A stretch of DNA of 64,000 nt from Rhodocytophaga aerolata (GTDB lineage: Bacteria; Bacteroidota; Bacteroidia; Cytophagales; 172606-1), in the NCBI RefSeq assembly GCF_030503435.1, contig NZ_JAUKPO010000001.1, positions 940,766-1,004,765 on the forward strand, given 5' to 3'. The notes below the pieces were generated by a model that saw only the letters and a program-made list of their open reading frames with translations, did no database searches and had not been told where the DNA came from. Shown here in pieces: positions 3,219 to 36,300 of the stretch. The position numbers and the translations under genes were made by a program. Within the stretch, counting starts at the first letter, position 1, and each line of letters starts with the position of its first letter.

Positions 3219-3617
3219 ATGAGATTAAAACACTTTAATATCACCTTTGGTAGCCAGATTTTCAAGGCTTTTAGTGAAGAATCCCGTATACGGATTATCT
3301 ACCTGCTCTATAATAATGAAGAAATGTGTATCTCGGATATAGAACATATTCTGGACTTTACACAAGCCAAAACATCGCGTCATCTGATTTATTTGAAGAA
3401 TGCAGGCTTATTAGGTTTTAAAAAAGTAGACCAGTGGGCCTATTATTATTTAAAAGAAGAGGTGAAAGACATTGTACAACAAATATTCCAGTACCTGGGC
3501 AAAGATCCGGTGTTACTCAACGACCAGGAAACATACCGCATCTTATATTCAAACCGGGAGCTGGCTATTTGTAAAAGGCATCAGCATAAGTGGTCGGGAG
3601 GAGTATTGAAACAATAA
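3219..3617 (+). CDS. ArsR/SmtB-family metalloregulatory transcriptional repressor
   Basis: 132 aa. Winged-HTH core EESRIRIIYLL...EMCISDIEHILDFTQAKTSRHLIYLKNAGLL is typical of the ArsR family. Confidence 0.8.
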   Translation: MRLKHFNITFGSQIFKAFSEESRIRIIYLLYNNEEMCISDIEHILDFTQAKTSRHLIYLKNAGLLGFKKVDQWAYYYLKEEVKDIVQQIFQYLGKDPVLLNDQETYRILYSNRELAICKRHQHKWSGGVLKQ

Positions 3618-3699
3618 GTCAATAGAGACGGTTAGTAAAAGAGGCTGAGGTAAGTCAACCCCATTTTATGCCTAACAAACCAAAAACAACCATTTGTAT

Positions 3700-4005
3700 A
3701 TGAAATATAAAAAACATGTATTCATCTGTACCAACCAGAAAGAAGGAGGCAAAAGATGTTGCGGAGAAGAAAAAGGCATGGTGCTTGTAAATGCTTTTAA
3801 AGAAGCCATTAAGACAAGAGGATTACAGATGGAAATGCGGGCACAAAAAACAGGTTGCCTGGATGCCTGTAACTTTGGACCGGCATTAGTAGTATACCCT
3901 GAAGGCACCTACTATGGCCATGTACAGCCAGAAGATGTGCAAGAAATTGTAGAGCAACACTTACTACAAAATCAGCCGGTTACCCGTCTGGTACTTCCTT
4001 ACTAA
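3700..4005 (+). CDS. Thioredoxin-like [2Fe-2S] ferredoxin (NuoE-like fold)
   Basis: Cys pattern C-x9-CC ... C-x3-C (ICTNQKEGGKRCCG ... GCLDAC). The track ORF begins at a TTG (3694); the in-frame ATG at 3700 (MKYKKHVF) is preferred. Confidence 0.6.
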   Translation: MKYKKHVFICTNQKEGGKRCCGEEKGMVLVNAFKEAIKTRGLQMEMRAQKTGCLDACNFGPALVVYPEGTYYGHVQPEDVQEIVEQHLLQNQPVTRLVLPY

Positions 4006-4082
4006 TTATTTATAACAGCCAAGTTAACGTAAAAGCATAGCAAAAAGCTTTTATTATTAACCAGTTATGTAAACCTTATTTT

Positions 4083-4781
4083 ATGCCAGCTTACCAGCAT
4101 ATATTTTTTGACCTGGATCATACCTTATGGGATTTTGAACGATGTTCCTGCGAAACGCTACACGAACTTTTCTATACATACCAGCTGCACACATTAGCGG
4201 ATAATCTTACTGTAGATACCTTTGTTACTGCTTTCCGTAAAGTAAACCGCCGTTTGTGGACTTTATATGGAGCCGGAGACATTACCCAGCAAGAATTACG
4301 TACCACCCGTTTCAACCTGATATTTAAAGAATTGGGCATTAGCAATAAGGAAATGGCAGCCAGGCTTGCTGATGAATATATTCAGCTTTGTCCACAAAAG
4401 CCGCACTTGCTGCCCTATGCCAAGGATATGTTAGATTACCTGAGTAACAAGTACATGTTGCATATTATTACCAATGGCTTTGCTGATGTGCAAATGATTA
4501 AACTGAAAAGTGCCAATATCATGTCGTATTTTTCTGAGATTATCACGTCTGAGAAAGCAGGGTGCCATAAACCAGACAGACGCATATTTGATTTTACCCT
4601 TCAACGGATAAAATCACATCCCAAAGAATGTATCATGATTGGTGACAGTTTAGACTCAGATATTAAAGGAGCCAGAAATGCGCAGTTAGATCATATATTC
4701 TATAACTATGAGAACATAACGCACCAGGAAAGCCCTATGCACGAGATAAAATGCTTGAGTGAGTTGAAGGAGTTACTGTAA
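4083..4781 (+). CDS. HAD-superfamily hydrolase (YjjG-like noncanonical nucleotidase / phosphatase)
   Basis: DxDxT motif I (FFDLDHTLWDF), a HAD cap, and C-terminal motif IV GDSLDSDIKGA. Confidence 0.75.
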   Translation: MPAYQHIFFDLDHTLWDFERCSCETLHELFYTYQLHTLADNLTVDTFVTAFRKVNRRLWTLYGAGDITQQELRTTRFNLIFKELGISNKEMAARLADEYIQLCPQKPHLLPYAKDMLDYLSNKYMLHIITNGFADVQMIKLKSANIMSYFSEIITSEKAGCHKPDRRIFDFTLQRIKSHPKECIMIGDSLDSDIKGARNAQLDHIFYNYENITHQESPMHEIKCLSELKELL

Positions 4782-4881
4782 TTGCGAAATAAGAGAAATG
4801 GAAATTCATAGCTATTTATACTTTCAGAAGTTTAAATAAACTGCTAGCTTTTATTCCTCATTACTATATTTTCCAAGCAGA

Positions 4882-5697
4882 TTACAGTTTCTCTATCAGT
4901 TTTTTGAATAATAAAGATAGCTTTTGGTCGGCTTTAGCAGCTACTTCTATAATTTCCTCTATGCTGATAGGTTGCAGATTGTCCGGGTCACATTCGTCGG
5001 TTACAACAGATATTGCTGCGCAAGGCAAACTCATATGATTGGCCACAATTACTTCCGGCACAGTAGACATACCCACCACATCCGCCCCAATCATGCGCAA
5101 AAAGCGGTATTCAGCACGGGTTTCTAGATTAGGGCCAGCGACCGATACATACACCCCTTGCTTTAAGGGAATATTTTCCTCAAGACTGATTCGTAATAAT
5201 CTGGAAGCAAGTTCTGCTGAATAAGGCTGACTCATATCCGGGAAACGGGGTCCAAACTCATTATTATTCCGTCCAATTAGTGGATTATCTGGTAACAGAT
5301 TTATATGATCTGAGATTAGGATGAGATCGCCTTTTTTGTATTGTAAATTTAATCCGCCGGCTGCATTGGAAAGGAGTAAATGCTGGATGCCCAGTAGCCG
5401 CATTACCCGGATTGGAAAAGTAATTTGCTGCATACTGTAGCCTTCGTAATAATGGAAACGGCCCTGCATAGCCAATACCTTTTTATCACCTATTTTTCCA
5501 TAAATTAGCTTGCCTTTATGCATTTCCACAGTGGCTTCCGGAAAATGTGGAATATCCGTATACTCTATTAGTTGCTCTATGGCAATATACTTGGTAAGCC
5601 AGCCTAACCCTGTCCCCAGCACAATGCCTGTTTCAGCATGCTGTATACCCCGGTTTCTAAGGTAGGAAACAGCCTCCTCATAATGTGTCTTTGTCAT
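4882..5697 (-). CDS. Purine nucleoside phosphorylase (PNP/MTAP family I)
   Basis: 271 aa. GTGLG phosphate-binding loop, MSTVPEV motif and a trimeric-PNP-like length. Confidence 0.8.
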   Translation of the reverse strand: MTKTHYEEAVSYLRNRGIQHAETGIVLGTGLGWLTKYIAIEQLIEYTDIPHFPEATVEMHKGKLIYGKIGDKKVLAMQGRFHYYEGYSMQQITFPIRVMRLLGIQHLLLSNAAGGLNLQYKKGDLILISDHINLLPDNPLIGRNNNEFGPRFPDMSQPYSAELASRLLRISLEENIPLKQGVYVSVAGPNLETRAEYRFLRMIGADVVGMSTVPEVIVANHMSLPCAAISVVTDECDPDNLQPISIEEIIEVAAKADQKLSLLFKKLIEKL

Positions 5698-5782
5698 AAG
5701 TTAATGGAAATTACAATAGTTTTCACAAAAGCGCGTCCGTCCGCAAGTATAAAAAACAAAATATAGCTGTGCACCAGATACC

Positions 5783-6403
5783 CTATAAAGATTTCAGTTG
5801 ATATGTACTCTGTTTCAAAAGGGCTAAATCTTCTTCCCGGTCCACATCCTGCAAAGTAGGTAACAAAGTATATGCTTTATGCAACTTGTGTAGATCAGCC
5901 AGCGTACTGTTAAATACGGTTGGCGAGCTCCAGGCTTTATTAATGAACAGCTCAGGAATACTCTTTACTAAACCTAGCAAATAATAGCCACCATCCGTAG
6001 CAGGTCCAATAACTACATTAGCAGTTGCTAGTGCATCGAAAGCTTGGTGAATAATATGAGTAGTCAGTTCAGGACAATCACTGCCAATAATTACTACTTG
6101 TTGGTACAGTTGTTCAAAAGCCCAGCAAAAGGCATTCTCCATCCGCCGGCCCAGGTCTGCTCCCTGCTGAACCTGTTTGAGATAGTGCTCATTCGGCCAT
6201 ATATCGTTTTCCTCTACAAAATCAGAGTAAAATACGGCCCTGTCTGTATGCACTTCTTTGGTAATATTTACTGTATAGGCTAATAATTGCTCATATATTT
6301 GCAGGGCACTGTTTTCTCCCATCGTTCTGGCAAGCCTGGTTTTTACTTTTCCTTTTATGGGGTTTTTTACAAAAATCAATAACAATCTACGCGGTTGAGA
6401 CAT
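5783..6403 (-). CDS. DUF2064 / TIGR04282-like transferase (rSAM/selenodomain-associated transferase 1, labelled arsenosugar biosynthesis glycosyltransferase)
   Basis: 206 aa. N-terminus LLLIFVKNPIKGKVKTRLA is typical of DUF2064. Directly downstream of ArsS on the same strand. Confidence 0.65.
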   Translation of the reverse strand: MSQPRRLLLIFVKNPIKGKVKTRLARTMGENSALQIYEQLLAYTVNITKEVHTDRAVFYSDFVEENDIWPNEHYLKQVQQGADLGRRMENAFCWAFEQLYQQVVIIGSDCPELTTHIIHQAFDALATANVVIGPATDGGYYLLGLVKSIPELFINKAWSSPTVFNSTLADLHKLHKAYTLLPTLQDVDREEDLALLKQSTYQLKSL

Positions 6404-6461
6404 ATTAGGTGATAAGGCTGAGCCACTCTAGTAGCCATAGCAGTTTAAAAGTAGCTAAGTA

Positions 6462-7526
6462 TTAAGCAGTTGCCCCGCCACAGCTGGAACCTGCGCCAGC
6501 TGTACAGCCATAACAATGTTGCCTCAATACAATTTCCCGTTCATTTAATGTCTGTAAATTAAACGTAGATATGTGTTGAGAACTGGCAGCAGCTACAGGA
6601 AGATCCAACATCTGGTTAAAATCACAGTCATACAAGCCACCATCCCAGCTGACAGATATTGTATTGCGGCACATCACCCCTCTGGCTGCCTGGGCATTGA
6701 AGGAATTAACCAATTTCTCCATATATCCTTCATAATTGCCACTTTGCATCAGAAAATCCAGAAATCGGCTAATGGGCATATTGGTGATAGCATATAAGTT
6801 ATTAAAGTGGATATTGAACTCCTCAAGCAATACTTTTTTAAACTGCTGTTCTAAGGAGTGTTGGGTAGCCGGCAGAAATGCACCACTGGGGTTGTATACT
6901 AAATTCAGCAACAAACCAGTGCCTTCCTGTCCATACCCTTGTTCATTTAACAACTGTAGTGCTTTCATAGAATCTTCAAATACGCCTTTGCCCCGCTGCC
7001 GGTCGGTACGGTCTGCATTGTAAAAAGGCAAGGAACTAACTACTTCTACATTATGCGTGCGGTAAAATTCTGGCAGATCATAATATTTAGGATTAGCTAC
7101 AATAATTGTCAGATTACAGCGGACCATTACTTTCTTGCCCAATTTGGTGCATTCTTCTACAAACCAACGGAAATGTGGATTCATTTCGGGAGCCCCACCG
7201 GTAATATCCACTACAGAAATAACATGGGTAGCTAATACCTTCAGGCACTGCTCCATAGTCTCCTTAGTCATGATCTCTTTCCTGTCTGGCCCGGCATCTA
7301 CATGGCAATGCCGGCAGGTCTGGTTACACATCTTCCCCACATTTACCTGGAATATATCTATCCCGGTAGGCTGCAAAGGATATAATCCGGATTGAGCTAA
7401 TTTTTCCCGGAAATGAGGCAATAGTTTACCGTTTTTTGGCGAAGCTTCTAATAACTCCAGCTGGTAAGCTGCCTGCGCCAATGGGTCATTACTGCTTTTT
7501 AAACTCTTGGTTAATACCTGGGTCAT
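6462..7526 (-). CDS. arsS: Arsenosugar-biosynthesis-type radical SAM protein ArsS (TIGR04167-like, Cys form of the C-terminal selenodomain)
   Basis: CNQTCRHCH radical-SAM CxxxCxxC motif. C-terminal CYGCTAGAGSSCGGATA Cys-rich tail is characteristic of the ArsS family. Confidence 0.75.
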   Translation of the reverse strand: MTQVLTKSLKSSNDPLAQAAYQLELLEASPKNGKLLPHFREKLAQSGLYPLQPTGIDIFQVNVGKMCNQTCRHCHVDAGPDRKEIMTKETMEQCLKVLATHVISVVDITGGAPEMNPHFRWFVEECTKLGKKVMVRCNLTIIVANPKYYDLPEFYRTHNVEVVSSLPFYNADRTDRQRGKGVFEDSMKALQLLNEQGYGQEGTGLLLNLVYNPSGAFLPATQHSLEQQFKKVLLEEFNIHFNNLYAITNMPISRFLDFLMQSGNYEGYMEKLVNSFNAQAARGVMCRNTISVSWDGGLYDCDFNQMLDLPVAAASSQHISTFNLQTLNEREIVLRQHCYGCTAGAGSSCGGATA

Positions 7527-7626
7527 AAAATGAATTTACATAGCAACCCATAGCTGCTGCTATTTTTGAAATTTACTACTTACACTTTCCGGTCGTTATG
7601 GAAAGCATGAAAGCCCATGCACGATG

Positions 7627-7962
7627 TTACATGGAAAGATCTTTCACTTTATTCATCATTTGTACGCCATGAACTAGCGTAGCCCCACCTCTGATAGCTG
7701 CTGCCACATGCACTGCTTCCATCATCTGACCTTCTGTATATCCTTTTTCCATGGCATCTACCGAATAGGCGTCAATACAATAAGGGCATTGTACGGCATG
7801 AGCTACCGCTAAGGCAATTAGTGATTTTTCTCTGGCCGAAAGTTCACCTTCAGCAAACACTTCTCCGTAGTAGCTGAAAAACTTATCGGCCAGCTGCTTT
7901 TGAAATTCACCAATGCTGCCAAATTTTTTAAGGTCTTCGGGGTTATAATAGGTTGGGTTCAT
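7627..7962 (-). CDS. Carboxymuconolactone-decarboxylase/AhpD-like protein (rSAM-associated peroxidase-like protein)
   Basis: 111 aa. CMD-family CxxC (AVQCPYCIDAY). It is the first gene of the minus-strand operon with ArsS. Confidence 0.7.
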   Translation of the reverse strand: MNPTYYNPEDLKKFGSIGEFQKQLADKFFSYYGEVFAEGELSAREKSLIALAVAHAVQCPYCIDAYSVDAMEKGYTEGQMMEAVHVAAAIRGGATLVHGVQMMNKVKDLSM

Positions 7963-8108
7963 ACGAGCGTAACTAAGAAAGAGATTGACTATTTGTTTAA
8001 CTGATACATACGAAGACTTGTTTGAAACAGATGTGTAACGTATATTTTTGTCGAACGATTAATGGACGCCACAAGGAGTCTGTTTACTACTAGGCACGAA
8101 TTCCCAAT

Positions 8109-8828
8109 ATGGAAAAAAAACCTGCAAATGACAAAATTAGTATTATTATCCCCACATATAATGAAGCAGGCACTATCGAAAAATTAGTAAGTTACCTTAT
8201 TGGTTTTAAAGCTGAAGCTATACACGAGATTCTGGTAGCTGATGGCGGTAGTACAGATGATACTTGCCAGCTAGCCCAACAAGCAGGCGCTTCAGTTATT
8301 GTATGTCCTAAAAAAGGCCGCGGTGCACAAATGAATTCCGGAGCAGCCCAGGCGACAGGTGGTATTCTATACTTTTTACATGCCGACTCTTATCCGCCAT
8401 CGGGCTTCTGGCAAGATATTATTACTTCCATCAAATGTGGATATCCCAGTGGCTGCTATCAGCTGGCATTCGACGATCCACATCCTTTTCTGCGTTTCAA
8501 TGCCTGGTTCACCCGATTTAACATAGATGCGGTCCGTTTTGGAGACCAAAGTTTATTTGTTACCAGCGACGTATTTCAGAAAGCCGGGGGCTTCCGGGAA
8601 GATTTGATTGTAATGGAAGATCAGGAAATTATTGGACGGATCCGCAAGTATGCCAAGTTTAAAATTTTGGCAGGCAAAGTAACTACTTCGGCTAGGAAGT
8701 ACCGGGAGAATGGCGTGTATAAACTTCAGGGAATTTTCTTTCTGATTTATTTTCTTTATCAACTAGGTGTACCACAAGAAAAACTGGTAAAGCTCTATAA
8801 ACGGTTGATCCGGCAGAATAAGGTATAA
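8109..8828 (+). CDS. Family-2 glycosyltransferase, TIGR04283-like (rSAM/selenodomain-associated transferase 2)
   Basis: N-terminus ISIIIPTYNEAGTIE matches GT2. Divergent from the ArsS operon across a 146-bp promoter region. Confidence 0.7.
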   Translation: MEKKPANDKISIIIPTYNEAGTIEKLVSYLIGFKAEAIHEILVADGGSTDDTCQLAQQAGASVIVCPKKGRGAQMNSGAAQATGGILYFLHADSYPPSGFWQDIITSIKCGYPSGCYQLAFDDPHPFLRFNAWFTRFNIDAVRFGDQSLFVTSDVFQKAGGFREDLIVMEDQEIIGRIRKYAKFKILAGKVTTSARKYRENGVYKLQGIFFLIYFLYQLGVPQEKLVKLYKRLIRQNKV

Positions 8829-8884: not shown

Positions 8885-9856
8885 TTAAATGTGGGTGGTA
8901 TAGCCTATTTTATCGCCATCGGCATTGTATAAATCACCATTTTTAGATACATAGATATACTTCTTCTGGTCATTATAAATTACCAGCGGAAAATCTTCGT
9001 TGGTAGATTTAGCTATTTTACCCACAACCGCTATTCCATTCTGGCCTACTTTAATCAGATTCAAGTTTTTAGTGAGGTAATAATCCTCTGAAGCAGCATG
9101 GTTAAACACTACTTTGCCTATCAGGTGCTGCTTATCAATGCCTGTTTTGGGCTGTACTTCTGGCTGATAAACAGGCTCCTCTACAGACGGATACTGCTGA
9201 GCCACTGTTTCTTGCTGTGGAGTTTCCTGCTGCCTGGCTATTACCTCTGTGGACACGGTTTCATCCGCCTGTTTCCAGCCTACCGAAATGGCTTCCAGCC
9301 GGGCATTTTTAGCCGGATGTGTATAAGAACCTTCGTCAGCAGCTAATACGCGCATAGCCGCTTGTGCTTCATGTAAACTTGCCCCCATTTTCCGCAACAC
9401 AAATCCTGAAAACTCGTCGGCCTCCAGTTCGCTGGAAGGGCGGCTACCAGCGTGGTCTAAGGTATGTCCGTTCAGATGATGGCCAATTTCATGAGCTAAT
9501 ATACTAATAGCCGCCCAGTTGGTACGGGTAGCTCCTTCAATCTGGGATATAAAATTCTGGCTGTACAGGATATACCGTTTGCTGTTGTAAATAACAGCAG
9601 CTGCATTATCCACATTAGCAGCCTTCAGTTCGAACCTCGGCTTTAGGCCCACAGCTTCCATAATCCTTCTGACTACCATATTTGCTTCACTACTGGATCT
9701 GAATTCGTACAACTCTCCATTAATTGGTTCTCCGGTATAAGTACAACTCTGCTCTACCTCAACAAGCAAAGGAGTCTGGCTGAAACTCTTACCAAAATTT
9801 AACAACACAAACAGCAAGCAAAATACAATTTTGCCAATATATAGTTGGTTTATCAT
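8885..9856 (-). CDS. Secreted protein with HExxH zinc-metallopeptidase-like motif and a P/Q/E-rich linker plus C-terminal domain
   Basis: Signal peptide MINQLYIGKIVFCLLFVLLNFGKSFSQ. HEIGHHLNGH followed by ELEAD. Family not identified. Confidence 0.45.
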   Translation of the reverse strand: MINQLYIGKIVFCLLFVLLNFGKSFSQTPLLVEVEQSCTYTGEPINGELYEFRSSSEANMVVRRIMEAVGLKPRFELKAANVDNAAAVIYNSKRYILYSQNFISQIEGATRTNWAAISILAHEIGHHLNGHTLDHAGSRPSSELEADEFSGFVLRKMGASLHEAQAAMRVLAADEGSYTHPAKNARLEAISVGWKQADETVSTEVIARQQETPQQETVAQQYPSVEEPVYQPEVQPKTGIDKQHLIGKVVFNHAASEDYYLTKNLNLIKVGQNGIAVVGKIAKSTNEDFPLVIYNDQKKYIYVSKNGDLYNADGDKIGYTTHI

Positions 9857-10093: not shown

Positions 10094-11170
10094 ATGACGC
10101 CAAATGACGAAAATGCTACATTACCAACATCTCAACGGCCTTTCCGTGTCTTGCTGATCTCTGGTTCTCAACGCAGACAATACAATTGCCCGGGGGTAGA
10201 TTCCAAATCCCGTACGCTTATGATGCGGATGGCCGAACAACTGCCACCGGACTGGGAAATAGACATGGAAGATCTGGCAAATGTATACGGACGAGAAAAA
10301 ATACAGCCTTGCAATGCTTGTGTATCTACCTCTATGGCTTTGTGTGTATGGCCCTGTAACTGCTATGAGAAGAATAATTCCAAAGAACCTGACTTGATGT
10401 GGAACCTGGATCTGTATAGCCGCCTGGATATGGCTGATTCCTGGGCTATTATTGGCCCGATTAACTGGTATGGGCCGCCCAGTAACCTTAAGCTAATGTT
10501 TGACAGATTAGTATGCATGAATGGCGGCAATCCCCAGGAAGACCTTATTGAGCACAAAGATCCTGAAAAGGCCATGGCTTTGGAACATACAGATCAATGG
10601 AAAGAACTTAGTGTAAATCACCTGGAGGGCCGTACAGCTGCTTTTTTCTGCTATGGCGATGGAGGCGGAGATGAGCTGGATGAAAGCGGCCGGCCAAAAC
10701 TACTGCAACATAAAAACTACTTTAACCCGGAAGCAGAACCTTTCGAAAATGATAGAGAAGCTTTTGCACCTTTAGTATGGCAGTGCCGCTACGGTGGAGT
10801 AGAAGTTCCCGACCATTTGTGGCAGTACAAAGAATTTGGTCATGGCAAAAAATACAGCGATAATCAGGCAGAAGATATGGTAAAAGAAACGGACGTAATG
10901 GCTCAGTTTGATCAATGGGTAGCTGATTTTGCTACATTCGTACAGAACAAAGGAAAAGTAGAACCAGGAAAATACAGGGCTTATGGCTATCAGGCTCCTG
11001 GCCATCAGTGGCGGGACGTCAAACTGGGTGTCCGTTATGCGCGTATGATGGCAGGCATTCCGCCTAAAGATTCATCTCCGTATGAGCAGCAACAGATGGA
11101 TTTAAACAAAGACCAGACTTTTTCACCCAAGAAGGGTGAAGGAGAGAAACTAAGAAAAAGGAAGAATTGA
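10094..11170 (+). CDS. Flavodoxin-like-fold protein (NAD(P)H-dependent FMN reductase / iron-sulfur-flavoprotein-like) with Cys cluster and long C-terminal extension
   Basis: VLLISGSQRR glycine-rich start of a flavodoxin fold. Cys cluster CNACVSTSMALCVWPCNC. 358 aa, longer than typical members. Confidence 0.4.
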   Translation: MTPNDENATLPTSQRPFRVLLISGSQRRQYNCPGVDSKSRTLMMRMAEQLPPDWEIDMEDLANVYGREKIQPCNACVSTSMALCVWPCNCYEKNNSKEPDLMWNLDLYSRLDMADSWAIIGPINWYGPPSNLKLMFDRLVCMNGGNPQEDLIEHKDPEKAMALEHTDQWKELSVNHLEGRTAAFFCYGDGGGDELDESGRPKLLQHKNYFNPEAEPFENDREAFAPLVWQCRYGGVEVPDHLWQYKEFGHGKKYSDNQAEDMVKETDVMAQFDQWVADFATFVQNKGKVEPGKYRAYGYQAPGHQWRDVKLGVRYARMMAGIPPKDSSPYEQQQMDLNKDQTFSPKKGEGEKLRKRKN

Positions 11171-16203: not shown

Positions 16204-17439
16204 TTAGAGAACAAACCCGGCCAGTAAACCTGCCAGAATAATAAATGGGTGAGGAATTTTGGTAAATACCAGTAAGCTAAAAGTACCCAAAACAATGCCT
16301 GCATTAATAGGGCTTTGCGCCATTGGCTGAAAAAGCAAAATGGCAGAGGTAGCAATAAGGCCAACACTGGCAGAGTTTATCCCTTCCAGGGAAGCACGAA
16401 TAACCCTGTACTGCTTCAGCTGATTCCAGAAGCGGTAAACGAAAAAGATAAGGAAGGTGCCGGGAAGAAAAATACCGGCTGTAGCCATAAAACTACCCAG
16501 CAACTCACCCCCTATTCCCCATTTACGCATAGATAAGGTTCCAATAAAGGCAGTAAATGAAAAAACCGGACCAGGTACCACTTGAGCTATTGCCAGGCCG
16601 GATAAAAACTCCTGGGAGGATAGATATTTTTTAAACTGGACAAATTCGGTAAATAACAGCGGAATTAATACTTGCCCGCCACCAAAAATAAAGCTGCCAT
16701 TCCGGTAAAAGTTCTCGAACAAGCGCATAGGTAACCATTTGGTAATTCCTCCGATAATGGCCGCTGCAAATGCTACTGATAAAAACAAAATAAAATTAGC
16801 CCATTGCACTTGTAATGGCTTTTTTTCAACCAGACGTTCATGCTTTTTGTACTGAGAGGCCGTAACCAATCCACCGGCCAGTAAAATAAGCGGGGTTACC
16901 CAGGGAGATTGTAAAAAATACGTAATAATGGCAGCTAAGGCAGCCAGCAGTACACTGGTTTTATTCTGAATAACTTTTAACCCTATTTTATAGCCGGCAT
17001 AAATCATAAACCCTACGGCCATTGGTTGTATGAAGCGGGTAAAATTAAGTGGTATATTATGTTGATGCAGGTAAGAAATACTCAGGCCCATTATAGTCAT
17101 AATACTAACCGCAGGGGCTATCCAGACCAGTAAGGTAAGATAGGCCAAGTTAGGCCCACCTACTTTAAATCCAATGGCAGTAATGGTTTGGGTGGAAGTG
17201 GGGCCGGGAAGTATCTGACAGAGAGCATTCAATTCAATTAGTTCTGCTTCTGTCAGGTACTTCCGCTTACAGACCATGTATTTTAAGAGCATAGCCATAT
17301 GAGCTTGTGGTCCGCCAAAGGCTCCCAAAGCTAAAATGAGTACGTCTTTGAGAAAAATGTAATACCGGATGCGTCCTACGTGTGTAGGAGGTAACAAGGT
17401 TGGTGGAGTAATTGAACGGGTTACACGCTCCAGATACAT
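16204..17439 (-). CDS. chrA: Chromate transporter ChrA (CHR family, duplicated domain)
   Basis: 411 aa. GGPQAHMAM and FGGGQVLIPL motifs in two homologous halves. Confidence 0.75.
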   Translation of the reverse strand: MYLERVTRSITPPTLLPPTHVGRIRYYIFLKDVLILALGAFGGPQAHMAMLLKYMVCKRKYLTEAELIELNALCQILPGPTSTQTITAIGFKVGGPNLAYLTLLVWIAPAVSIMTIMGLSISYLHQHNIPLNFTRFIQPMAVGFMIYAGYKIGLKVIQNKTSVLLAALAAIITYFLQSPWVTPLILLAGGLVTASQYKKHERLVEKKPLQVQWANFILFLSVAFAAAIIGGITKWLPMRLFENFYRNGSFIFGGGQVLIPLLFTEFVQFKKYLSSQEFLSGLAIAQVVPGPVFSFTAFIGTLSMRKWGIGGELLGSFMATAGIFLPGTFLIFFVYRFWNQLKQYRVIRASLEGINSASVGLIATSAILLFQPMAQSPINAGIVLGTFSLLVFTKIPHPFIILAGLLAGFVL

Positions 17440-26209: not shown

Positions 26210-26440
26210 TGTATTATCTGATAAATTTAGTAGAATTTTTCTGGTATAAATTTTGTTTAATTTGATAGGGCAAAAGTCTTATAATTTCATAACTTTAGGT
26301 AATATTTTTGCAAATTATTCACTTTTGCCGGTAACAGTACAGGGGCAAATATAGTTTATTATATAAACAACCACCCAACTATTAAAAAAACCGTATAAAT
26401 TATAAATTTCCGGGCATTGCCTACGTTAACTATAGTACTT

Positions 26441-27865
26441 ATGAAAACTACTCAATCATTAAAATACTTATTATTTGCGGGAATTGTTGGCGTCTGGGGA
26501 TGCAGTAGCCAGCAGTACTCGCAGAACCAGGAATATGATGACTTATATTTCTCCTCTAAAGATAGAGAGCAAGTAACGCTTACAGCTTCTGCCTCTTCCA
26601 CCGACTATTCCAATATTGAAAATAAAGGAGTAGCTAGTGAAGATTACAGTCAGAAAAACGTAAACCCAGAGTATATTCAGCAATATGCCGATCAGAACCG
26701 GCAAAATTCCAGCACAACTAATAATGATAGTTACAGTGCAGACGACAATTCTTATTACGATGAGAATTACAGCCGGAATAATAACCCGATCGGCTTAGCC
26801 AGAGGCTACGAAAGGTACAACAATGGCGGTACCACTGTTAATGTATTTCCTAGCATTGGCTTCGGTGGCGGATACTATGGTGGCTCTGCTTTTTACGATC
26901 CATTCTATGATCCTTATTTCTTTAATAATGGTTTTTACGATCCATTCTTCAACCGTCCATTTTATGGCCGACCAGGCTGGAATATCAACATAAGCTATAA
27001 CTATGGATGGGGAAACCCATGGGGCTGGGGAAGAAGTGCCTATTGGTATGATCCATTCTACAATCCTTACAGATCTTGGGGTTACTGGGGAGATCCGTAT
27101 TACAGTGGATTTTATAACAGACCTTACTACGGATGGGGTGGCGGATGGAATCGCAACAATGTGATAATTGTCAATCCAGGTAACGATAATGGTTCCCGTC
27201 AGGTACGGACTAGTCCACGTAGTAACAGAGGTTCCGCTGTTGTGAATGATAACTTCAACAATACACCAAGAACTACACGCGACACCCGTGGTGGAAGAGT
27301 AGATCAATCGGAAGGTGCTGCTGGTACTAATACATCCCCTAACTATTCTGATAATACAAACAGGAGACCGTCTAATGTCAGCACAGATGAAAGCAGACCT
27401 GCCAGAGCCATACGGCCTAGAAGTGATGCTAATCCTGACTATCAGCCACAAAACACTCAGCCGAGTTATAACAATAATTCAGGCAACAGAACATATTCTC
27501 CGAATGTGAATAATGGTTCTAACGATGGTGGTATAACAAATCCGCGTGCTGTACGTCCACGTAGTAATAATGATAGTTATCAGAACCAAAATAGCAACAG
27601 ATCCTACGATAATAATTCCAATAGATCCAGTGCGCCAACGTATAACAGCACACCTTCTTCCGGAAGATCACCCAGAACGTATGACAACTCCAGAAGCAAC
27701 AATAGCTGGAACAACAACTCTAGTAACGACAGCTATCGTTCAAATGGAAGTTTCAACAATAATTCGTCTGGTGGCTCTTATTCAAGTCCAAGTTCTGCAC
27801 CTAGCAGAAGCAGCAGTAGTGGTAGCAGCAGCGGCGGCAGTTCTCCACGAAGATCACCTAGATAG
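26441..27865 (+). CDS. Low-complexity N/S/Y/W/G/R-rich disordered lipoprotein
   Basis: The track start is a TTG; the ATG at 26441 gives MKTTQSLKYLLFAGIVGVWGCSS, a lipobox. Aromatic-Gly block with YDPFY / WGxxW repeats, then an S/N/R-rich tail with RPRS repeats and a poly-Ser end. Confidence 0.6.
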   Translation: MKTTQSLKYLLFAGIVGVWGCSSQQYSQNQEYDDLYFSSKDREQVTLTASASSTDYSNIENKGVASEDYSQKNVNPEYIQQYADQNRQNSSTTNNDSYSADDNSYYDENYSRNNNPIGLARGYERYNNGGTTVNVFPSIGFGGGYYGGSAFYDPFYDPYFFNNGFYDPFFNRPFYGRPGWNINISYNYGWGNPWGWGRSAYWYDPFYNPYRSWGYWGDPYYSGFYNRPYYGWGGGWNRNNVIIVNPGNDNGSRQVRTSPRSNRGSAVVNDNFNNTPRTTRDTRGGRVDQSEGAAGTNTSPNYSDNTNRRPSNVSTDESRPARAIRPRSDANPDYQPQNTQPSYNNNSGNRTYSPNVNNGSNDGGITNPRAVRPRSNNDSYQNQNSNRSYDNNSNRSSAPTYNSTPSSGRSPRTYDNSRSNNSWNNNSSNDSYRSNGSFNNNSSGGSYSSPSSAPSRSSSSGSSSGGSSPRRSPR

Positions 27866-30191: not shown

Positions 30192-30893
30192 ATGAAAGAG
30201 TTACTAGAAGCTTCTGTTTCACTAGTAAATGTTATTCCTACGACTTTACTGGTTTTTGTGATTCTGTATTGGCTCATAGTTATACTCGGGCTGATAGATA
30301 TGGATGCCATAAATTTAGATCTGGACCACGATGTAACGGTGGAACATGAAATTCATACTACTTTCCACACACATGCCGATATTCCAACAAAAGATGTAGC
30401 TGTGAAGGAAATGCACAACACAGAAGTAGCCAACTCTGGTAATTGGATGCAGGCTGCGCTTGTATTTTTTAACCTGGGTAAAGTGCCTTTTATGGTATTT
30501 ATGAGCTTTCTGATTCTACCTATATGGGCTATTTCTATCCTAGTGAATCATTATTTGGGAAACAGTTCGATACTTGTTGCTATAGCATTATTGATTCCGA
30601 ATATACTTATCAGTTTCTTTATAGCAAAAATTTTGACTACCCCTTTTGTCAAGGTATTCAGTTACTTGCAAAACGATCCGGATAAACAGCAAGTTTTAGG
30701 GCAAATTTGTACAGTGCTCCTGCCTGCCGGTTCTGGAAAATTAGGCCAGGCGGTTATCAACAACAAAGGCAATACCATACTTTTAAATGTAAAGTCGGCA
30801 GATGGCCATACATTAGAAAAAGGAAAAAGTGCCCTTGTTCTTGAGTTTAATAAAGAAAAACAATACTATTTAATTCAATCCTTTGATCAATAA
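30192..30893 (+). CDS. NfeD-like / YuaF-like membrane protein with C-terminal OB-fold-like domain
   Basis: 233 aa. Three to four TM segments, a His/acidic loop (DLDHDVTVEHEIHTTFHTH) and a C-terminal beta-rich soluble domain. 7 bp upstream of the flotillin gene. Confidence 0.6.
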   Translation: MKELLEASVSLVNVIPTTLLVFVILYWLIVILGLIDMDAINLDLDHDVTVEHEIHTTFHTHADIPTKDVAVKEMHNTEVANSGNWMQAALVFFNLGKVPFMVFMSFLILPIWAISILVNHYLGNSSILVAIALLIPNILISFFIAKILTTPFVKVFSYLQNDPDKQQVLGQICTVLLPAGSGKLGQAVINNKGNTILLNVKSADGHTLEKGKSALVLEFNKEKQYYLIQSFDQ

Positions 30894-30899
30894 ACAACT

Positions 30900-33101
30900 A
30901 TGTTCACATCTGTAACTTTCGCGGTTATAATTTTTATAGCCTTTTTTCTGATTGCCACCCTTATTTTTATAGCCAACTGCTATCACAAAGCAGAGCAAGG
31001 CATGGCCTTGATAAAAACTGGTGTTGGCGGTACGCATGTTTCTTTTTCAGGTATGATTGTCATTCCGGTAATGCACAGACTAGAGATGATGGATATTTCC
31101 CTGAAAACAGTAGTTATTTCCCGGCAGGGTAAAGAAGGATTGATTTGTAAGGACAATTTACGGGCAGATATTAAAGTAACTTTCTTTGTGCGGGTAAACA
31201 AAACAGAGCAAGATGTTATTCAGGTAGGCCAGTCTATTGGTTGCCGTAGAGCCTCCGATACTAAAGCATTGGAAGACCTATTTGATGCTAAATTCTCCGA
31301 AGCCCTGAAAACAGTAGGTAAAAAATTTGACTTTATTGAACTGTATAATTCCAGAGAACTCTTTAAGCAAGAAATTCTGCAAATTATAGGTACAGATTTG
31401 AATGGCTATATCCTCGACGATTGTGCCATTGATTACCTGGAACAAACTCATATTGAGGCATTGAATGAAAATAATATTATGGATGCGGAAGGCATCAAAA
31501 AGATTATTGAACTGACTGCCAAACAAAAAATAATGGCCAATCATTTTGAGCGGGAAAAAGAAAAAACCATTACCCAGCAGAACGTGCAAGCGAAGGAAGC
31601 TATACTGGAACTGAACCGGCAGTTGGCAGAAACCGAAGAAAAGCAAAAGCGGGAAATTGCTTCTATCCGTGCCCGTGAAGAAGCTGAAATCGCTGTAATT
31701 CAGCAGCAAGAACGGCTGAAAGCAGAAAAAGCACGCATTCAAACTGAAGAAGAATCCCGTGTAGCCGAAGAAAATCGCGACCGTCAGATTATAGTAGCGC
31801 AGAAGAATAAAGAACGCGTAGAAGCTGTAGAAAAAGAAAGAGTAGATAAAGACCGTTTACTGGAAGTTACAGAAAAACAACGGATCGTTACACTTGCTGA
31901 CATTGCCAAAGAGAAAGCCATTGAAGAAGAACGCAAGAATATTCAGGAAGTAATCCGCGAAAGAGTAGCTGTACAAAAAGCAGTAGTGGCCGAAGAAGAA
32001 AAGATAAAAGATACCCAAGCATTTGCTCAGGCAGACCGTGAAAAATCCGTAGCTATCAAACGTGCGGAAATGCTAGCGGAAGAATCATTGGTTCAACAAA
32101 TAAAAGCTGCCGAAGCTGACCGCCAGTCTGCCGAATTGAAAGCCAAACGCCTAGTAGTAGAAGCTGAAGCAGAGCAAGCCACTGCCGGCAAAAAAGCAGA
32201 AGCCATTAAAATACTGGCCGATGCTGAAGCCGCCAAAGCAGCCGCTGTAGGAGTAGCAGAAGCCCAGGTAATTCAAGCTAAAGCCTTGGCCAAAGAAAAA
32301 GATGGTAAGGCGGATGCTACGGTTATAGAGAACAAAGCCATAGCTGAAGCTAAAGGCATAGAGGTGATGGCGAAAGCGCAGGCAGAGGCTGATGAAAAAT
32401 TAGGCTTAGTGGCTGCCAAGATCAACAAAGAGAAAGGCTTATCCGATGCCAATGTAATTGAAGTAAAAGCGCAGGCAGAAGAGAAAAAAGGCTTAACAGA
32501 AGCTAAAATTATGCATGAGAAGTTCACAGCGGAAGCCAAAGGTATTGAAAGCAAGGCAGATGCTATGCGTAAATTAGACGGCGTAGGCAAGGAACACGAA
32601 GAGTTTAAGTTGAGATTACAGAAAGAAAAAGACGTTGAACTGGCTATGATCAACATTCAGAAAGCAATTGCCGATGCACAAGCTACCGTATTGGGAGAAG
32701 CCCTGAAAGTATCTAAAATTGATATTGTGGGTGGCGAAACTATGTTCTTCGACAAACTGGTGAATTCCATTAGCAATGGAAAGTCTGTAGATAAACTGTT
32801 TACCAATAGCCATGTACTGACAGATGTTAAAAACACGTTCTTTACCAATGGAAACGGCAATGGACACAGTAATGGAAAAGATGACCCCAAAGCTATATTC
32901 AGAGATAATCTGAAGAAGCTGGTAGATCAGTTTGGCATTACATCAGAAGATGTAAAAAACCTGAGTGTGGCTGCCCTCCTGATGCAGATGTCTAAGTTGG
33001 CTGACGATAAAGAATCCAAAGGCTTGCTTAATCAACTGATGCAAATGGCTAAAAAGAAAGGCGTTTCTGACGATGCTGCGCAGACTTTAGGTATCTGGTA
33101 A
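30900..33101 (+). CDS. Flotillin-family protein (FloT/YuaG-like: TM hairpin, SPFH domain, EA-repeat flotillin domain, about 200-aa C-terminal extension)
   Basis: 733 aa. N-terminal TM, a band-7 core and long AEAEA/KAEAEK coiled-coil repeats. Confidence 0.8.
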   Translation: MFTSVTFAVIIFIAFFLIATLIFIANCYHKAEQGMALIKTGVGGTHVSFSGMIVIPVMHRLEMMDISLKTVVISRQGKEGLICKDNLRADIKVTFFVRVNKTEQDVIQVGQSIGCRRASDTKALEDLFDAKFSEALKTVGKKFDFIELYNSRELFKQEILQIIGTDLNGYILDDCAIDYLEQTHIEALNENNIMDAEGIKKIIELTAKQKIMANHFEREKEKTITQQNVQAKEAILELNRQLAETEEKQKREIASIRAREEAEIAVIQQQERLKAEKARIQTEEESRVAEENRDRQIIVAQKNKERVEAVEKERVDKDRLLEVTEKQRIVTLADIAKEKAIEEERKNIQEVIRERVAVQKAVVAEEEKIKDTQAFAQADREKSVAIKRAEMLAEESLVQQIKAAEADRQSAELKAKRLVVEAEAEQATAGKKAEAIKILADAEAAKAAAVGVAEAQVIQAKALAKEKDGKADATVIENKAIAEAKGIEVMAKAQAEADEKLGLVAAKINKEKGLSDANVIEVKAQAEEKKGLTEAKIMHEKFTAEAKGIESKADAMRKLDGVGKEHEEFKLRLQKEKDVELAMINIQKAIADAQATVLGEALKVSKIDIVGGETMFFDKLVNSISNGKSVDKLFTNSHVLTDVKNTFFTNGNGNGHSNGKDDPKAIFRDNLKKLVDQFGITSEDVKNLSVAALLMQMSKLADDKESKGLLNQLMQMAKKKGVSDDAAQTLGIW

Positions 33102-33316
33102 AAAATGAGTACATAGATGCTCATAGGTAGGAATGTTACTATATAAAAAAGCTAGTAACATATGCCTTCAATTTAACAAAAGTAATTTTTCTGACTGTGT
33201 GCTGTTATCAAAAATGACAGCATACAGTCTTCTACCTATCTTACAGATCATTCACCGAAGAATGGTCAACTAGCTTTATAGATAAGCTAATCTTCAAGTA
33301 AAGATTTATTAGCTCC

Positions 33317-36300
33317 ATGGCAAATCCAACCCCAGCAATAAAAGAAAATCCGGTAAAAGAAGCACATCTGGAAGAAGGCACTTATGAAATAATCCGGAAC
33401 CGCTTGCGTAAACAAGGAAACGAACTGCGCACCCGACTCGATACATTGAATCACAAAAGGCGTGAAGTATTTGGTTCTATTGAAACACGTTTGCTGGCTA
33501 CCGAACGCATTACTACCGACAACAACTGTGTCCCAGTAGACATGGTTCCTGTAAATGACCTGTTCATTTTTGGATACAATGTACACATGGGCCTAAAAAC
33601 AGAGACTAGTATTAGTGATGTATTTAGTGTTTACCGGTATCAAAACCACAGTTTCGTTCAACAGCCTTTAGATTTAATTGCAGACAAACGTTTTGAAGAA
33701 GATTTTAAGAATCTCTACAAATACTACCGGAATACACAGTTTGCCAAATTTGCTTTATTAGGTCAGCGGCTGTTTATGATTTTTCAGGTTGGAAAAAGCC
33801 AGGATGATATCAAAACCTTTAAATGGGTAATAGAAGGAGACAAACTAACCTATGTGGATAACCGCAGTGAAGGCGAATTTTCATATCCGGACCAGTACCA
33901 GTTTAAATGGAAACGAACCTCCCGCGAAGCACGCAGAGAAGGAAAGTTCCCACATATATCTATCGCTGACCGGGTATTTGTTGAAACCATCGGCGGCGAT
34001 CTTACGATCAAAATAGAAAATAACACAGCCAGTGGAGAGGGCATTTATTCAGAAGAGGTAAAACACAAAGACCAGACCCTGGACGATGCGGAAATCTTCT
34101 ATGCCATAATTGGGAGCATTGTGGTACTCAAAATCAAACCATTTCAGGAAAATGAGTATCGCTATATTGTATACAATGAAAAAATCCGGCAGGCACGCCG
34201 CATAGATTCCCTGAAAGATTCCTGCGTATTTCTACCCGACGACCACGGAATTATTTTCGCAAATGGGTATTATCTGCAAACTGGAGAATACAAGCTATTC
34301 GATACTCAAATGGCTAATATGCTTTTTGAAAAACGTATTGCTTCTCCCAATGGCGAAGATTTTCTATATATATTTTATAGCAAGGTTACCGGCATTTATG
34401 AGTTACTCTCCTATAACCTCATAGAACAAAAAGTGGCCATTCCAATTATTTGCCATGGCTATTCCATCTTTGAAAATGGCGAACTCTGCTATTTTAAAGG
34501 AGAAGACGAGCCTAAGAAACATCATGTTGTACAAATCTGGCAGACACCCTATGTAGACCCTAACTTTCCCCTGCACACAAGCAATAGTGAGTCCTATTTG
34601 TATAAAATCGGCAATAAAGATGTAGTTAGGGCAATGGCCGAATGCAACGAACTGCTCACGTTAATCGACCGGGACGACAGTTATGCCAACTTGTATCTGG
34701 ATCTGGTAAAGATGTCTACCGATATTATAGACTCTTACCACTGGCTTAATAAAGAAGAAACCCTTCGTTTGATTGAGCCGCTAGCAGAGCTAAAGCAATC
34801 GGCCTCAACGGCCATTGAGGAGTTTGAAAAAGTAACCCGTATCAAAAAGAATACAGCTGTTGAGGTAGAACGGGTAACTGGCAAAATCACAAAAGTATTT
34901 GCAGATGTCAAACGGCAACAGCCCGAAAGTATTGATTATTTTGTACATTTTCTGGCTGAACTGCGCACCCTACGAGGAGAAACTATTTCGCTAAAAAGCC
35001 TGCGGTATGTAGCCATTTCTTCCATTGAAAGTAAGGAAAAAGAAATTGAAGCATATACTACAAAACTATCTGATGAGTGTGTGCAGTTTTTATTAAAAGA
35101 CGATGCGTTACTGCCCTACCACCAGAAAGTTACACTGCTGCAAGAGCATATCAACAAAATAGAAAAAGTAATAGATGCCAGCAAAACAGAAGAAGAAATA
35201 ACCAAAACATCGCAGGAACTGGAGATGTTGATAGAGGTGGTAAGTAACCTCAAAATTGAGGATGCTACCCAAACCACGCGGATCATTGACAATATTTCTT
35301 CTATTTATGCCCATTTCAACCAGATTAAAGCTGCCCTTAAACGCAAAAGACAGGAATTAGTAGGTATAGAAGGCAAAGCTGAGTTCGCCTCCCAGTTAAA
35401 ACTTATAGATCAGGGAGTGGCCAATTATCTGGATATTAGTGAAACACCTCAGAAATGCGATGAATACATCACTAAGCTAATGGTGCAACTGGAAGAGCTG
35501 GAAGGAAAATTCACCGAATTTGAAGAGTTTACGGAAAAAATTACAGAAAAGCGGGAAGAAATATACAATGCCTTTGAAAGCAAAAAACTAAGCCTGATTG
35601 AAGCCAGAAATAAACGTGCCACTAGCCTGCTGCAATCAGCCGAACGGATACTCAAAGGGATTAATAACCGGGTAACTTCTTTTGCTACCAGCTCAGAAAT
35701 TAACGGCTACTTCGCCTCTGATCTCATGGTAGATAAGGTACGCGATATTATTAAGCAATTAATTGAAATTGGCGATACCGTAAAATCAGATGACATCCAA
35801 AGCCGTCTAAAAACTGCCCAGGAAGAAGCCATACGCCAGCTGAAAGACCGCCAGGAATTATTTGTAGATGGAGCCTCTATTATTAAGTTTGGCGACTTTA
35901 AGTTTTCTGTCAATACGCAGCCATTAGATCTGACGATGGTCTACCGCAACGGAGATATGTATTACCATTTAACAGGGACTAATTTCTTTGAGAAAGTAAC
36001 CAATGCCGCTTTTAACAACTCCCGTAACGTATGGGAACAAAGCTTAGTGTCGGAAAACAAACAAGTATACCGCGCCGAATATCTGGCTTATCAGATAATT
36101 AAGAAGGCACAAGAAGCTGAAAAAACTTCTGTATCTAACGGAATGCAATACCTGACTCTGGAAGTTCTACATAAGTTAACCGATGAAGAGTTACTTGCCT
36201 ACATTCAGAAGTTTATGGCTCCCAGGTACAATGAAGGCTATATAAAAGGAGTGCATGACCATGATACACGGATATTACTCCGGGCATTGCTGAACTTTAC

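Follow-up and report, generated by a model that had tools for sequence, protein, structure and literature searches.

A 64,000-nt stretch of the genome of the soil bacterium Rhodocytophaga aerolata (order Cytophagales; contig NZ_JAUKPO010000001.1; hereafter the window, in whose numbering positions are given) carries at 4882-8828 what is very probably an arsenosugar-type biosynthesis cluster, in which the operon of the radical S-adenosylmethionine (SAM) enzyme ArsS ends with a gene for a purine nucleoside phosphorylase (PNP). Several proteins encoded in the window have exact matches among those of the species, WP_302036153 being one. The cluster is of a known kind, already named 'arsenosugar biosynthesis' by NCBI. 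The linkage of PNP to ArsS is real and recurrent, not universal, and the PNP is probably a functional part of the cluster. The best overall explanation, to which we assign a probability of roughly 0.55, is an arsenosugar cluster in which the PNP, a TIGR04282 protein and a TIGR04283 glycosyltransferase would act in succession on the product of ArsS.

Arsenic in algae and seafood occurs mainly as arsenosugars. In the accessible literature the enzymes assigned to their biosynthesis cover only the first two steps, those of ArsM and ArsS, and none is assigned to glycoside formation or to the removal of adenine (bioRxiv 10.64898/2026.04.29.721666). The recurrent PNP, its residues resembling those of methylthioadenosine phosphorylase (MTAP) and its adjacency to TIGR04282 provide concrete candidates for both reactions, and the order of reactions proposed below is stereochemically consistent and can be tested with purified proteins. 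As far as we could find, there is no earlier description of the PNP-bearing form of the cluster, of the coupling of PNP to TIGR04282 or of the MTAP-like site of the enzyme.

All eight genes that a sequence-only reading of the window had listed between 3219 and 8828 are present, and the radical SAM-associated set of four that it had recognized among them is real, each member exceeding its NCBIfam cut-off. The ArsS operon lies on the minus strand and opens with an AhpD-like CxxC protein (7627-7962; TIGR04169, 187.6 bits, cut-off 120; Cys59/62). This is followed by ArsS itself (6462-7526; TIGR04167, 455.6 bits, cut-off 300), by a TIGR04282/DUF2064 protein that resembles CofC and is a putative nucleotidyltransferase (5783-6403; 209.8 bits, cut-off 134) and, as the final gene, by the PNP-family phosphorylase (4882-5697; NF006054, 355 bits, cut-off 218), with spacings of 100, 58 and 85 bp. 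The family 2 glycosyltransferase (GT2) TIGR04283 (8109-8828, plus strand; 232.1 bits, cut-off 182; Pfam Glycos_transf_2) is divergent from this operon, and an ArsR regulator, a 2Fe-2S ferredoxin and a HAD hydrolase converge on the PNP from the opposite strand. The last position of the PNP and the convergent trio were thus both described correctly by the earlier reading. TIGR04169, TIGR04282 and TIGR04283 are all no more than 1.3 kb from ArsS. The CX3CX2C motif of ArsS is formed by Cys67/71/74 and its Pfam domains are Radical_SAM and DUF3641 (the latter at 189 bits); the AhpD-like gene stands immediately 5' of ArsS in 63 of 81 loci.

The four families, all above cut-off and in their usual arrangement, match the radical SAM-associated set of NCBIfam/TIGRFAMs (TIGR04167/TIGR04169/TIGR04282/TIGR04283), with the difference that the NCBIfam scan revealed no cluster-specific PNP model and the window PNP matched generic PNP and MTAP models only. 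A second point of comparison is the Synechocystis ArsM/ArsS arsenosugar pathway, reportedly the subject of Xue et al. in 2019, with which the window shares the ArsS family TIGR04167 and the chemistry leading to DDMAA, the adenosylation product of dimethylarsenite, and whose dedicated ArsM has a counterpart in orthologous clusters. However, only the first two steps are characterized there, and in the window arsM is not nearby and PNP, TIGR04282 and TIGR04283 are added. The conversion of dimethylarsenite to DDMAA by ArsS is established (PMC13598754; see also the 2021 work of Cheng et al. to which PMC12159101 refers).

How regular, then, is the association of PNP with ArsS? Loci around ArsS homologues were taken from 80 species-representative genomes (59-69% identity, almost all Bacteroidota; L numbers below denote individual loci), and in 25 of these the PNP is found within about 4.5 kb of ArsS, which refutes the concern that the two might be neighbors in this genome only. 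When all neighboring open reading frames (ORFs) were clustered, PNP emerged as the fifth commonest neighbor family, matching TIGR04283 (26 loci) and a recurrent 323-residue methyltransferase (27 loci) in frequency. The latter matches NF038099, 'arsenosugar biosynthesis arsenite methyltransferase ArsM', at 576 bits, and 10 of the 25 PNP-linked loci also carry it. The linkage spans Cytophagales, Chitinophagales and Flavobacteriales and takes at least four gene orders, the PNP being placed directly 3' of ArsS (L015, L038, L078, L079, L165), 3' of TIGR04282 (the window, L070, L080, L061), upstream and divergent (L021, L031, L036, L050, L057) or upstream on the same strand (L004, L016). At L165 the order is AhpD, ArsS, PNP, ArsM; at L082 it is ArsS, rhodanese, DUF2064, GT2, PNP, PHO4, DUF547, GT2, with ArsM further on.

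A reciprocal test was seeded with the PNP in 79 metagenome loci, 24 of which contained arsenosugar genes; 26 had none in flanks of 4 kb or more to either side and 29 were too short. Among the long-flank loci, the PNP is arsenosugar-linked in 9 of 35. Where both genes occur, TIGR04282 directly adjoins the PNP (gap of at most 250 bp) in 27 of 39 loci, the corresponding figures being 11 of 19 for ArsM and 9 of 36 for ArsS. At L133, L139 and L143 the PNP-DUF2064 pair is present with no ArsS within 8 kb, at L143 in the order rhodanese, DUF2064, PNP, DUF547, GT2. The adjacency of PNP and TIGR04282, together with these ArsS-less pairs, suggests two modules, one of which (ArsM, AhpD-like protein and ArsS) would make DDMAA and the other of which (PNP, TIGR04282 and TIGR04283, joined in some lineages by DUF547 and rhodanese) would process it.

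Two further observations concern the surroundings of this second gene group. A rhodanese protein (NF045521, 'rhoda_near_glyco') and DUF547 recur at L016, L032, L071, L082, L143 and other loci, often between ArsS and TIGR04282. At L139 the DUF2064-linked PNP is accompanied, some 1.3 kb away, by a second, more distant gene of the PNP_UDP_1 superfamily (L139 positions 10133-11035, minus strand; 300 residues, 1.1e-24), which places two phosphorylase-fold genes near the module.

The window PNP was aligned to human PNP and human MTAP, and the mapped positions gave the expected catalytic residues. An Asp occupies the position of human PNP Asn243, as Asp220 does in MTAP, and an Ile that of His257, equivalent to the aliphatic Val233 in the 5' pocket of MTAP. 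The residues that bind phosphate and ribose are retained (His64, Arg84, His86, Tyr88, Asn115, Ala116, Gly118, Glu201, Met219, Ser220 and Thr242), with Ser33 changed to Thr and Phe200 to Leu relative to the human enzyme. The protein passes TIGR01700, the model for trimeric, inosine/guanosine-specific enzymes (313.2 bits, cut-off 293.35), and falls outside the MTAP family TIGR01694 (90.6 bits, cut-off 274.85). The residues that go with TIGR01700-type specificity, Asn243 for 6-oxopurines and His257 as 5'-OH ligand, are not kept. Judged by sequence, the window PNP is therefore a PunA-type enzyme with MTAP-like specificity positions. With MTAP, an enzyme of methionine salvage, it shares the fold superfamily, the Asp and aliphatic positions and, as predicted here, the phosphorolysis of a 5'-substituted adenosine, whereas the resemblance in detail is confined to the two specificity positions.

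An Asn-to-Asp exchange is known to turn a trimeric PNP for 6-oxopurines into one for adenosine (PMC5074518), and because the window PNP has Asp at this purine-specificity position, adenine nucleosides are plausible substrates. Its predicted active site fits a 5'-substituted adenosine, which speaks for capacity and not for specialization towards the cluster. The pairing of Asp with an aliphatic residue is common to all 107 clade members examined, linked or unlinked, and in part of the PNP tree the linked sequences are mixed with unlinked ones. The idea that the linked PNPs form a specialized paralogue with its own active-site residues was rejected, since unlinked members carry the same signature. 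Among solved structures the nearest (4lna and 4m1e) have Asp and an aliphatic residue, 8swt has Asp and His, and 4ns1 and 8swu have the canonical Asn. For the Bacteroidota clade with Asp and an aliphatic residue, the 'inosine/guanosine-specific' label of TIGR01700 is probably wrong, and the window enzyme ought not to carry it. Of the earlier suggestion that the PNP removes adenine and a HAD phosphatase then dephosphorylates the product, the first half is supported by membership in the cluster and by the Asp/Ile site and the second is not. The PNP makes a good candidate for the adenine-removal step, one open to testing, and we lean towards DDMAA as the compound on which it acts.

In the pathway that we propose, ArsS would make DDMAA, the step established in the literature, and the PNP would phosphorolyse DDMAA to adenine and 5-deoxy-5-dimethylarsinoyl-alpha-D-ribose-1-phosphate. 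The CofC-like TIGR04282 protein would join this arsenoribose-1-phosphate to a nucleotide, giving a nucleoside diphosphate (NDP) sugar, from which the inverting GT2 TIGR04283 would transfer the sugar to a glycerol or lipid acceptor, yielding a beta-riboside. Inversion by PNP gives the alpha-1-phosphate and GT2 enzymes add a second inversion, and so the beta configuration of natural arsenosugars would be reproduced by the two together. That natural arsenosugars are beta-ribofuranosides follows from the compound name in PMC6656958.

The role proposed for TIGR04282 comes from its likeness to CofC/FbiD, the 2-phospho-L-lactate (or phosphoenolpyruvate) guanylyltransferases, and the match is one that we take to include FbiD. 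The protein matches the CofC models TIGR03552 (5e-10, below the cut-off) and Pfam CofC (1e-7) and shares an N-terminal K-T-R-L motif, but the similarity is weak, with E values from 1e-7 to 5e-10. Residues K21, R23, L24 and D109 and the motif DGGYYL are invariant in 26 homologues, and the closest and only solved relative is PDB 3cgx; nothing on the function of DUF2064 was found in the accessible literature. We put forward only tentatively that TIGR04282 is a nucleotidyltransferase acting on the PNP product. TIGR04283 is weakly similar to glucosyl-3-phosphoglycerate synthases and so recalls pathways of the GpgS/GpgP type, where a GT-A synthase that uses a phosphorylated acceptor is followed by a phosphatase. 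The HAD of the window could in principle dephosphorylate such a phospho-acceptor product, but it is non-conserved and belongs to a nucleotidase family. That PNP, TIGR04282 and TIGR04283 supply the second half of arsenosugar biosynthesis, missing until now, by way of a previously unknown NDP-5-deoxy-5-(dimethylarsinoyl)-ribofuranose donor, is the boldest form of the proposal and a rather unlikely one.

Is arsenic the substrate at all? The earlier observation that the window contains neither arsM nor an arsenic efflux gene holds over the full 64 kb, since arsenosugar-type ArsM is absent by tblastn (best E = 1.2) and no Acr3 or ArsB occurs among the window ORFs, where a chromate transporter is the only metal/metalloid efflux gene recognized. 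This chromate efflux transporter (TIGR00937, 196 bits) is encoded at 16204-17439 on the minus strand, 8 kb from the cluster. The possibility of a non-arsenic native substrate, which had been raised from the missing arsM, has no positive support, because loci without arsM are the majority (ArsM within 10 kb is missing at 53 of the 80 ArsS loci) and because the window ArsS nests among ArsM-linked orthologues in a tree where ArsM-linked and unlinked sequences interleave. Orthologous ArsS proteins at 59-69% identity adjoin arsenosugar-type ArsM. An arsM just outside the window, which had been named as a way in which the locus could turn out to be a standard arsenic island, is unlikely on the ArsR side, since the syntenic relative L081 has a PAS kinase, SusD and SusC beyond ArsR and no ArsM further left. 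The arsenite methyltransferase would be expected elsewhere in the R. aerolata genome.

The three convergent genes, all on the plus strand, encode an ArsR/SmtB-family helix-turn-helix regulator (3219-3617; NF033788, 68.8 bits), a thioredoxin-like 2Fe-2S ferredoxin (3694-4005; under the ferredoxin equivalog cut-offs, matching Suc_Fer-like) and a YjjG-family HAD nucleotidase (4083-4781; TIGR02254, 207 bits, cut-off 159.9). When 168 loci were searched at E = 1e-3, these three and a gene for an M48-like secreted protein (8885-9856, minus strand; weak Pfam M48 match; between TIGR04283 and a flavoprotein gene) recurred only in L081, which is 94% identical and syntenic throughout. Outside L081 the HAD gave one weak match (L014, E = 3e-4), the ArsR family gave two (L023 and L147), and the ferredoxin was seen in L081 only. 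The HAD has the motif DLDHT at residues 10-14 (DxDxT) and by its score belongs to the YjjG nucleotidase equivalog rather than to a sugar-1-phosphatase family. In the R773 ArsR, the As(III) site is CVCDLC in helix 3; the regulator of the window has two Cys only, Cys37 and Cys118, its helix-3 region reads EEMCISDIEH, and the As(III)-binding Cys triad is missing. The adenosylation catalyzed by ArsS is reportedly redox-neutral and the deoxyadenosyl group ends up in the product (PMC13598754), so a dedicated ferredoxin is not required at each turnover. Because the trio is non-conserved, its HAD a YjjG nucleotidase and its ArsR devoid of the triad, and because ArsS is redox-neutral, we infer that ArsR, ferredoxin and HAD form an unrelated neighboring operon.

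Several proposals of the sequence-only reading are not supported by these results. Linkage to ArsS across Bacteroidota exists for the PNP, at 25 of 80 loci and in several gene orders, and fails for the HAD. Dephosphorylation of the PNP product by this HAD finds no support in its conservation or its family, and the removal of the 1-phosphate would waste an activated anomeric carbon on which a transferase acting later would depend. Re-reduction of the radical SAM cluster by the ferredoxin is not borne out, the ferredoxin being non-conserved and ArsS redox-neutral. An almost self-contained pathway that includes both proteins is likewise at odds with their recurrence in L081 only.

Several points weigh against the PNP-TIGR04282-TIGR04283 route itself. 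The PNP is absent near ArsS in 55 of the 80 loci and is thus not an obligatory linked component. Unlinked orthologues of similar identity, from the Bacteroidales locus L083 and from the 26 unlinked metagenome loci, have the same active-site signature, which is therefore a property of the clade and not an adaptation to the cluster, and the linked PNP may be the general adenosine/MTA phosphorylase of its genome. For TIGR04282, the putative nucleotidyltransferase role is drawn from a single kind of evidence, family-level similarity to CofC; a search of the PDB with the family profile gave CofC 2i5e at a non-significant E = 0.5, and single-sequence AlphaFold returned an unusable model (pLDDT 46.7). 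We know of no NDP-ribofuranose donors of the proposed type, and every step after ArsS is one that we infer. Finally, when an Adhaeribacter ArsM was used as a database query, no Rhodocytophaga protein was among the best 120 matches.

Other roles for the PNP must also be weighed. It could serve by-product salvage, clearing 5'-deoxyadenosine from abortive radical SAM cleavage, methylthioadenosine (MTA) and adenosine derived from S-adenosylhomocysteine (SAH), all of which would inhibit ArsS or ArsM, and leave the arsenic intermediate untouched. MTAP-type enzymes do process 5'-deoxyadenosine (the DHAP shunt), the Asp/aliphatic site, common to unlinked orthologues, would suit any 5'-deoxy or 5'-thio adenosine, and the gene adjoined in 11 of 19 loci, ArsM, encodes a producer of SAH. 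However, the tightest association is with TIGR04282 (27 of 39) and not with the radical SAM gene (9 of 36), the PNP-DUF2064 pair persists at the three loci with no ArsS within 8 kb, and little by-product is expected from an enzyme that incorporates the deoxyadenosyl group into its product (PMC13598754); on this evidence salvage is unlikely. A linkage that is inherited synteny of a housekeeping PNP, devoid of functional meaning, appears quite improbable. Interleaving of linked and unlinked PNPs in part of the tree would suit it, as would orthologues of about 70% identity in unrelated contexts, such as the Bacteroidales one at L083 (70%), but several independent gene orders and orientations in three Bacteroidota orders would not, nor would a frequency among neighbors similar to those of ArsM and TIGR04283. 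With a single PNP per genome of about 5 Mb, chance alone would put it within 5 kb in about 0.2% of cases, against the 31% observed.

Of two other schemes, the less credible still, with next to no likelihood, makes the PNP serve arsenate reduction, nucleoside arsenolysis giving ribose-1-arsenate that thiols reduce to arsenite, which feeds ArsM. Bacteria normally use ArsC for arsenate reduction, and although clusters sometimes include a PHO4-type phosphate/arsenate transporter (L082), neither the Asp/Ile substitutions nor the TIGR04282 adjacency would be explained. Mammalian PNP offers a precedent in vitro (Gregus and Nemeti, 2002; Radabaugh, 2002; both as cited in PMC12608789), but its occurrence in vivo is unknown according to that review. 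The other scheme, very unlikely in our judgment, is the full model of the sequence-only reading, in which PNP is followed by HAD dephosphorylation, ferredoxin re-reduces ArsS and the self-contained pathway is perhaps not concerned with arsenic. It has in its favor that the window and L081 both have the full set of genes side by side and that 64 kb contain no arsM. Yet HAD, ferredoxin and ArsR are not conserved beyond L081, the HAD is a YjjG nucleotidase and ArsS is redox-neutral; moreover, ArsS proteins of 59-69% identity adjoin ArsM and interleave with that of the window in the tree, and most loci have no arsM nearby. The arsenosugar route through PNP, TIGR04282 and TIGR04283 thus remains the explanation that we prefer.

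Beyond the core, a 358-residue FMN_red-like flavoprotein (10094-11170, plus strand) recurs beside TIGR04283 in other clusters. It is 72-77% identical across Bacteroidota, Acidobacteriota, Armatimonadota and Proteobacteria, and matched no NCBIfam model and no solved structure. The gene stands beside TIGR04283 or a fatty-acid hydroxylase at L006, L015, L026, L038, L060, L116, L127 and L166, a Pyrinomonadaceae cluster included, and is also found away from the cluster (L167, L168). The flavoprotein is a possible accessory redox partner and a better candidate than the non-conserved ferredoxin.

Arsenosugar clusters of Bacteroidota and Acidobacteriota often contain a PlsC-like acyltransferase, an OlsE-like fatty-acid hydroxylase, a short-chain dehydrogenase/reductase and a glyoxalase-fold protein (L003, L031, L036, L050, L052, L057, L006, L028, L166 and others). 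These genes hint that the end product may be an arsenolipid rather than a free arsenosugar.

As to expression signals, neither the divergent intergenic region nor the DNA 5' of ArsR showed an operator-like inverted repeat, and a promoter/terminator scan, whose models were not built for Bacteroidota promoters, did no better than on shuffled sequence. A TAnnTTTG element of the Bacteroidota type was spotted by eye about 60 bp 5' of the TIGR04283 gene.

Elsewhere in the window, a 482-residue protein encoded at 26417-27865 (plus strand) has a signal-like N-terminus and a low-complexity body extremely rich in Asn, Ser, Tyr, Arg and Gly. Further along, at 30192-38257 (plus strand), reading of the translations revealed three same-strand genes, which encode a small membrane protein, a 733-residue flotillin-like coiled-coil protein and a protein of 1646 residues.

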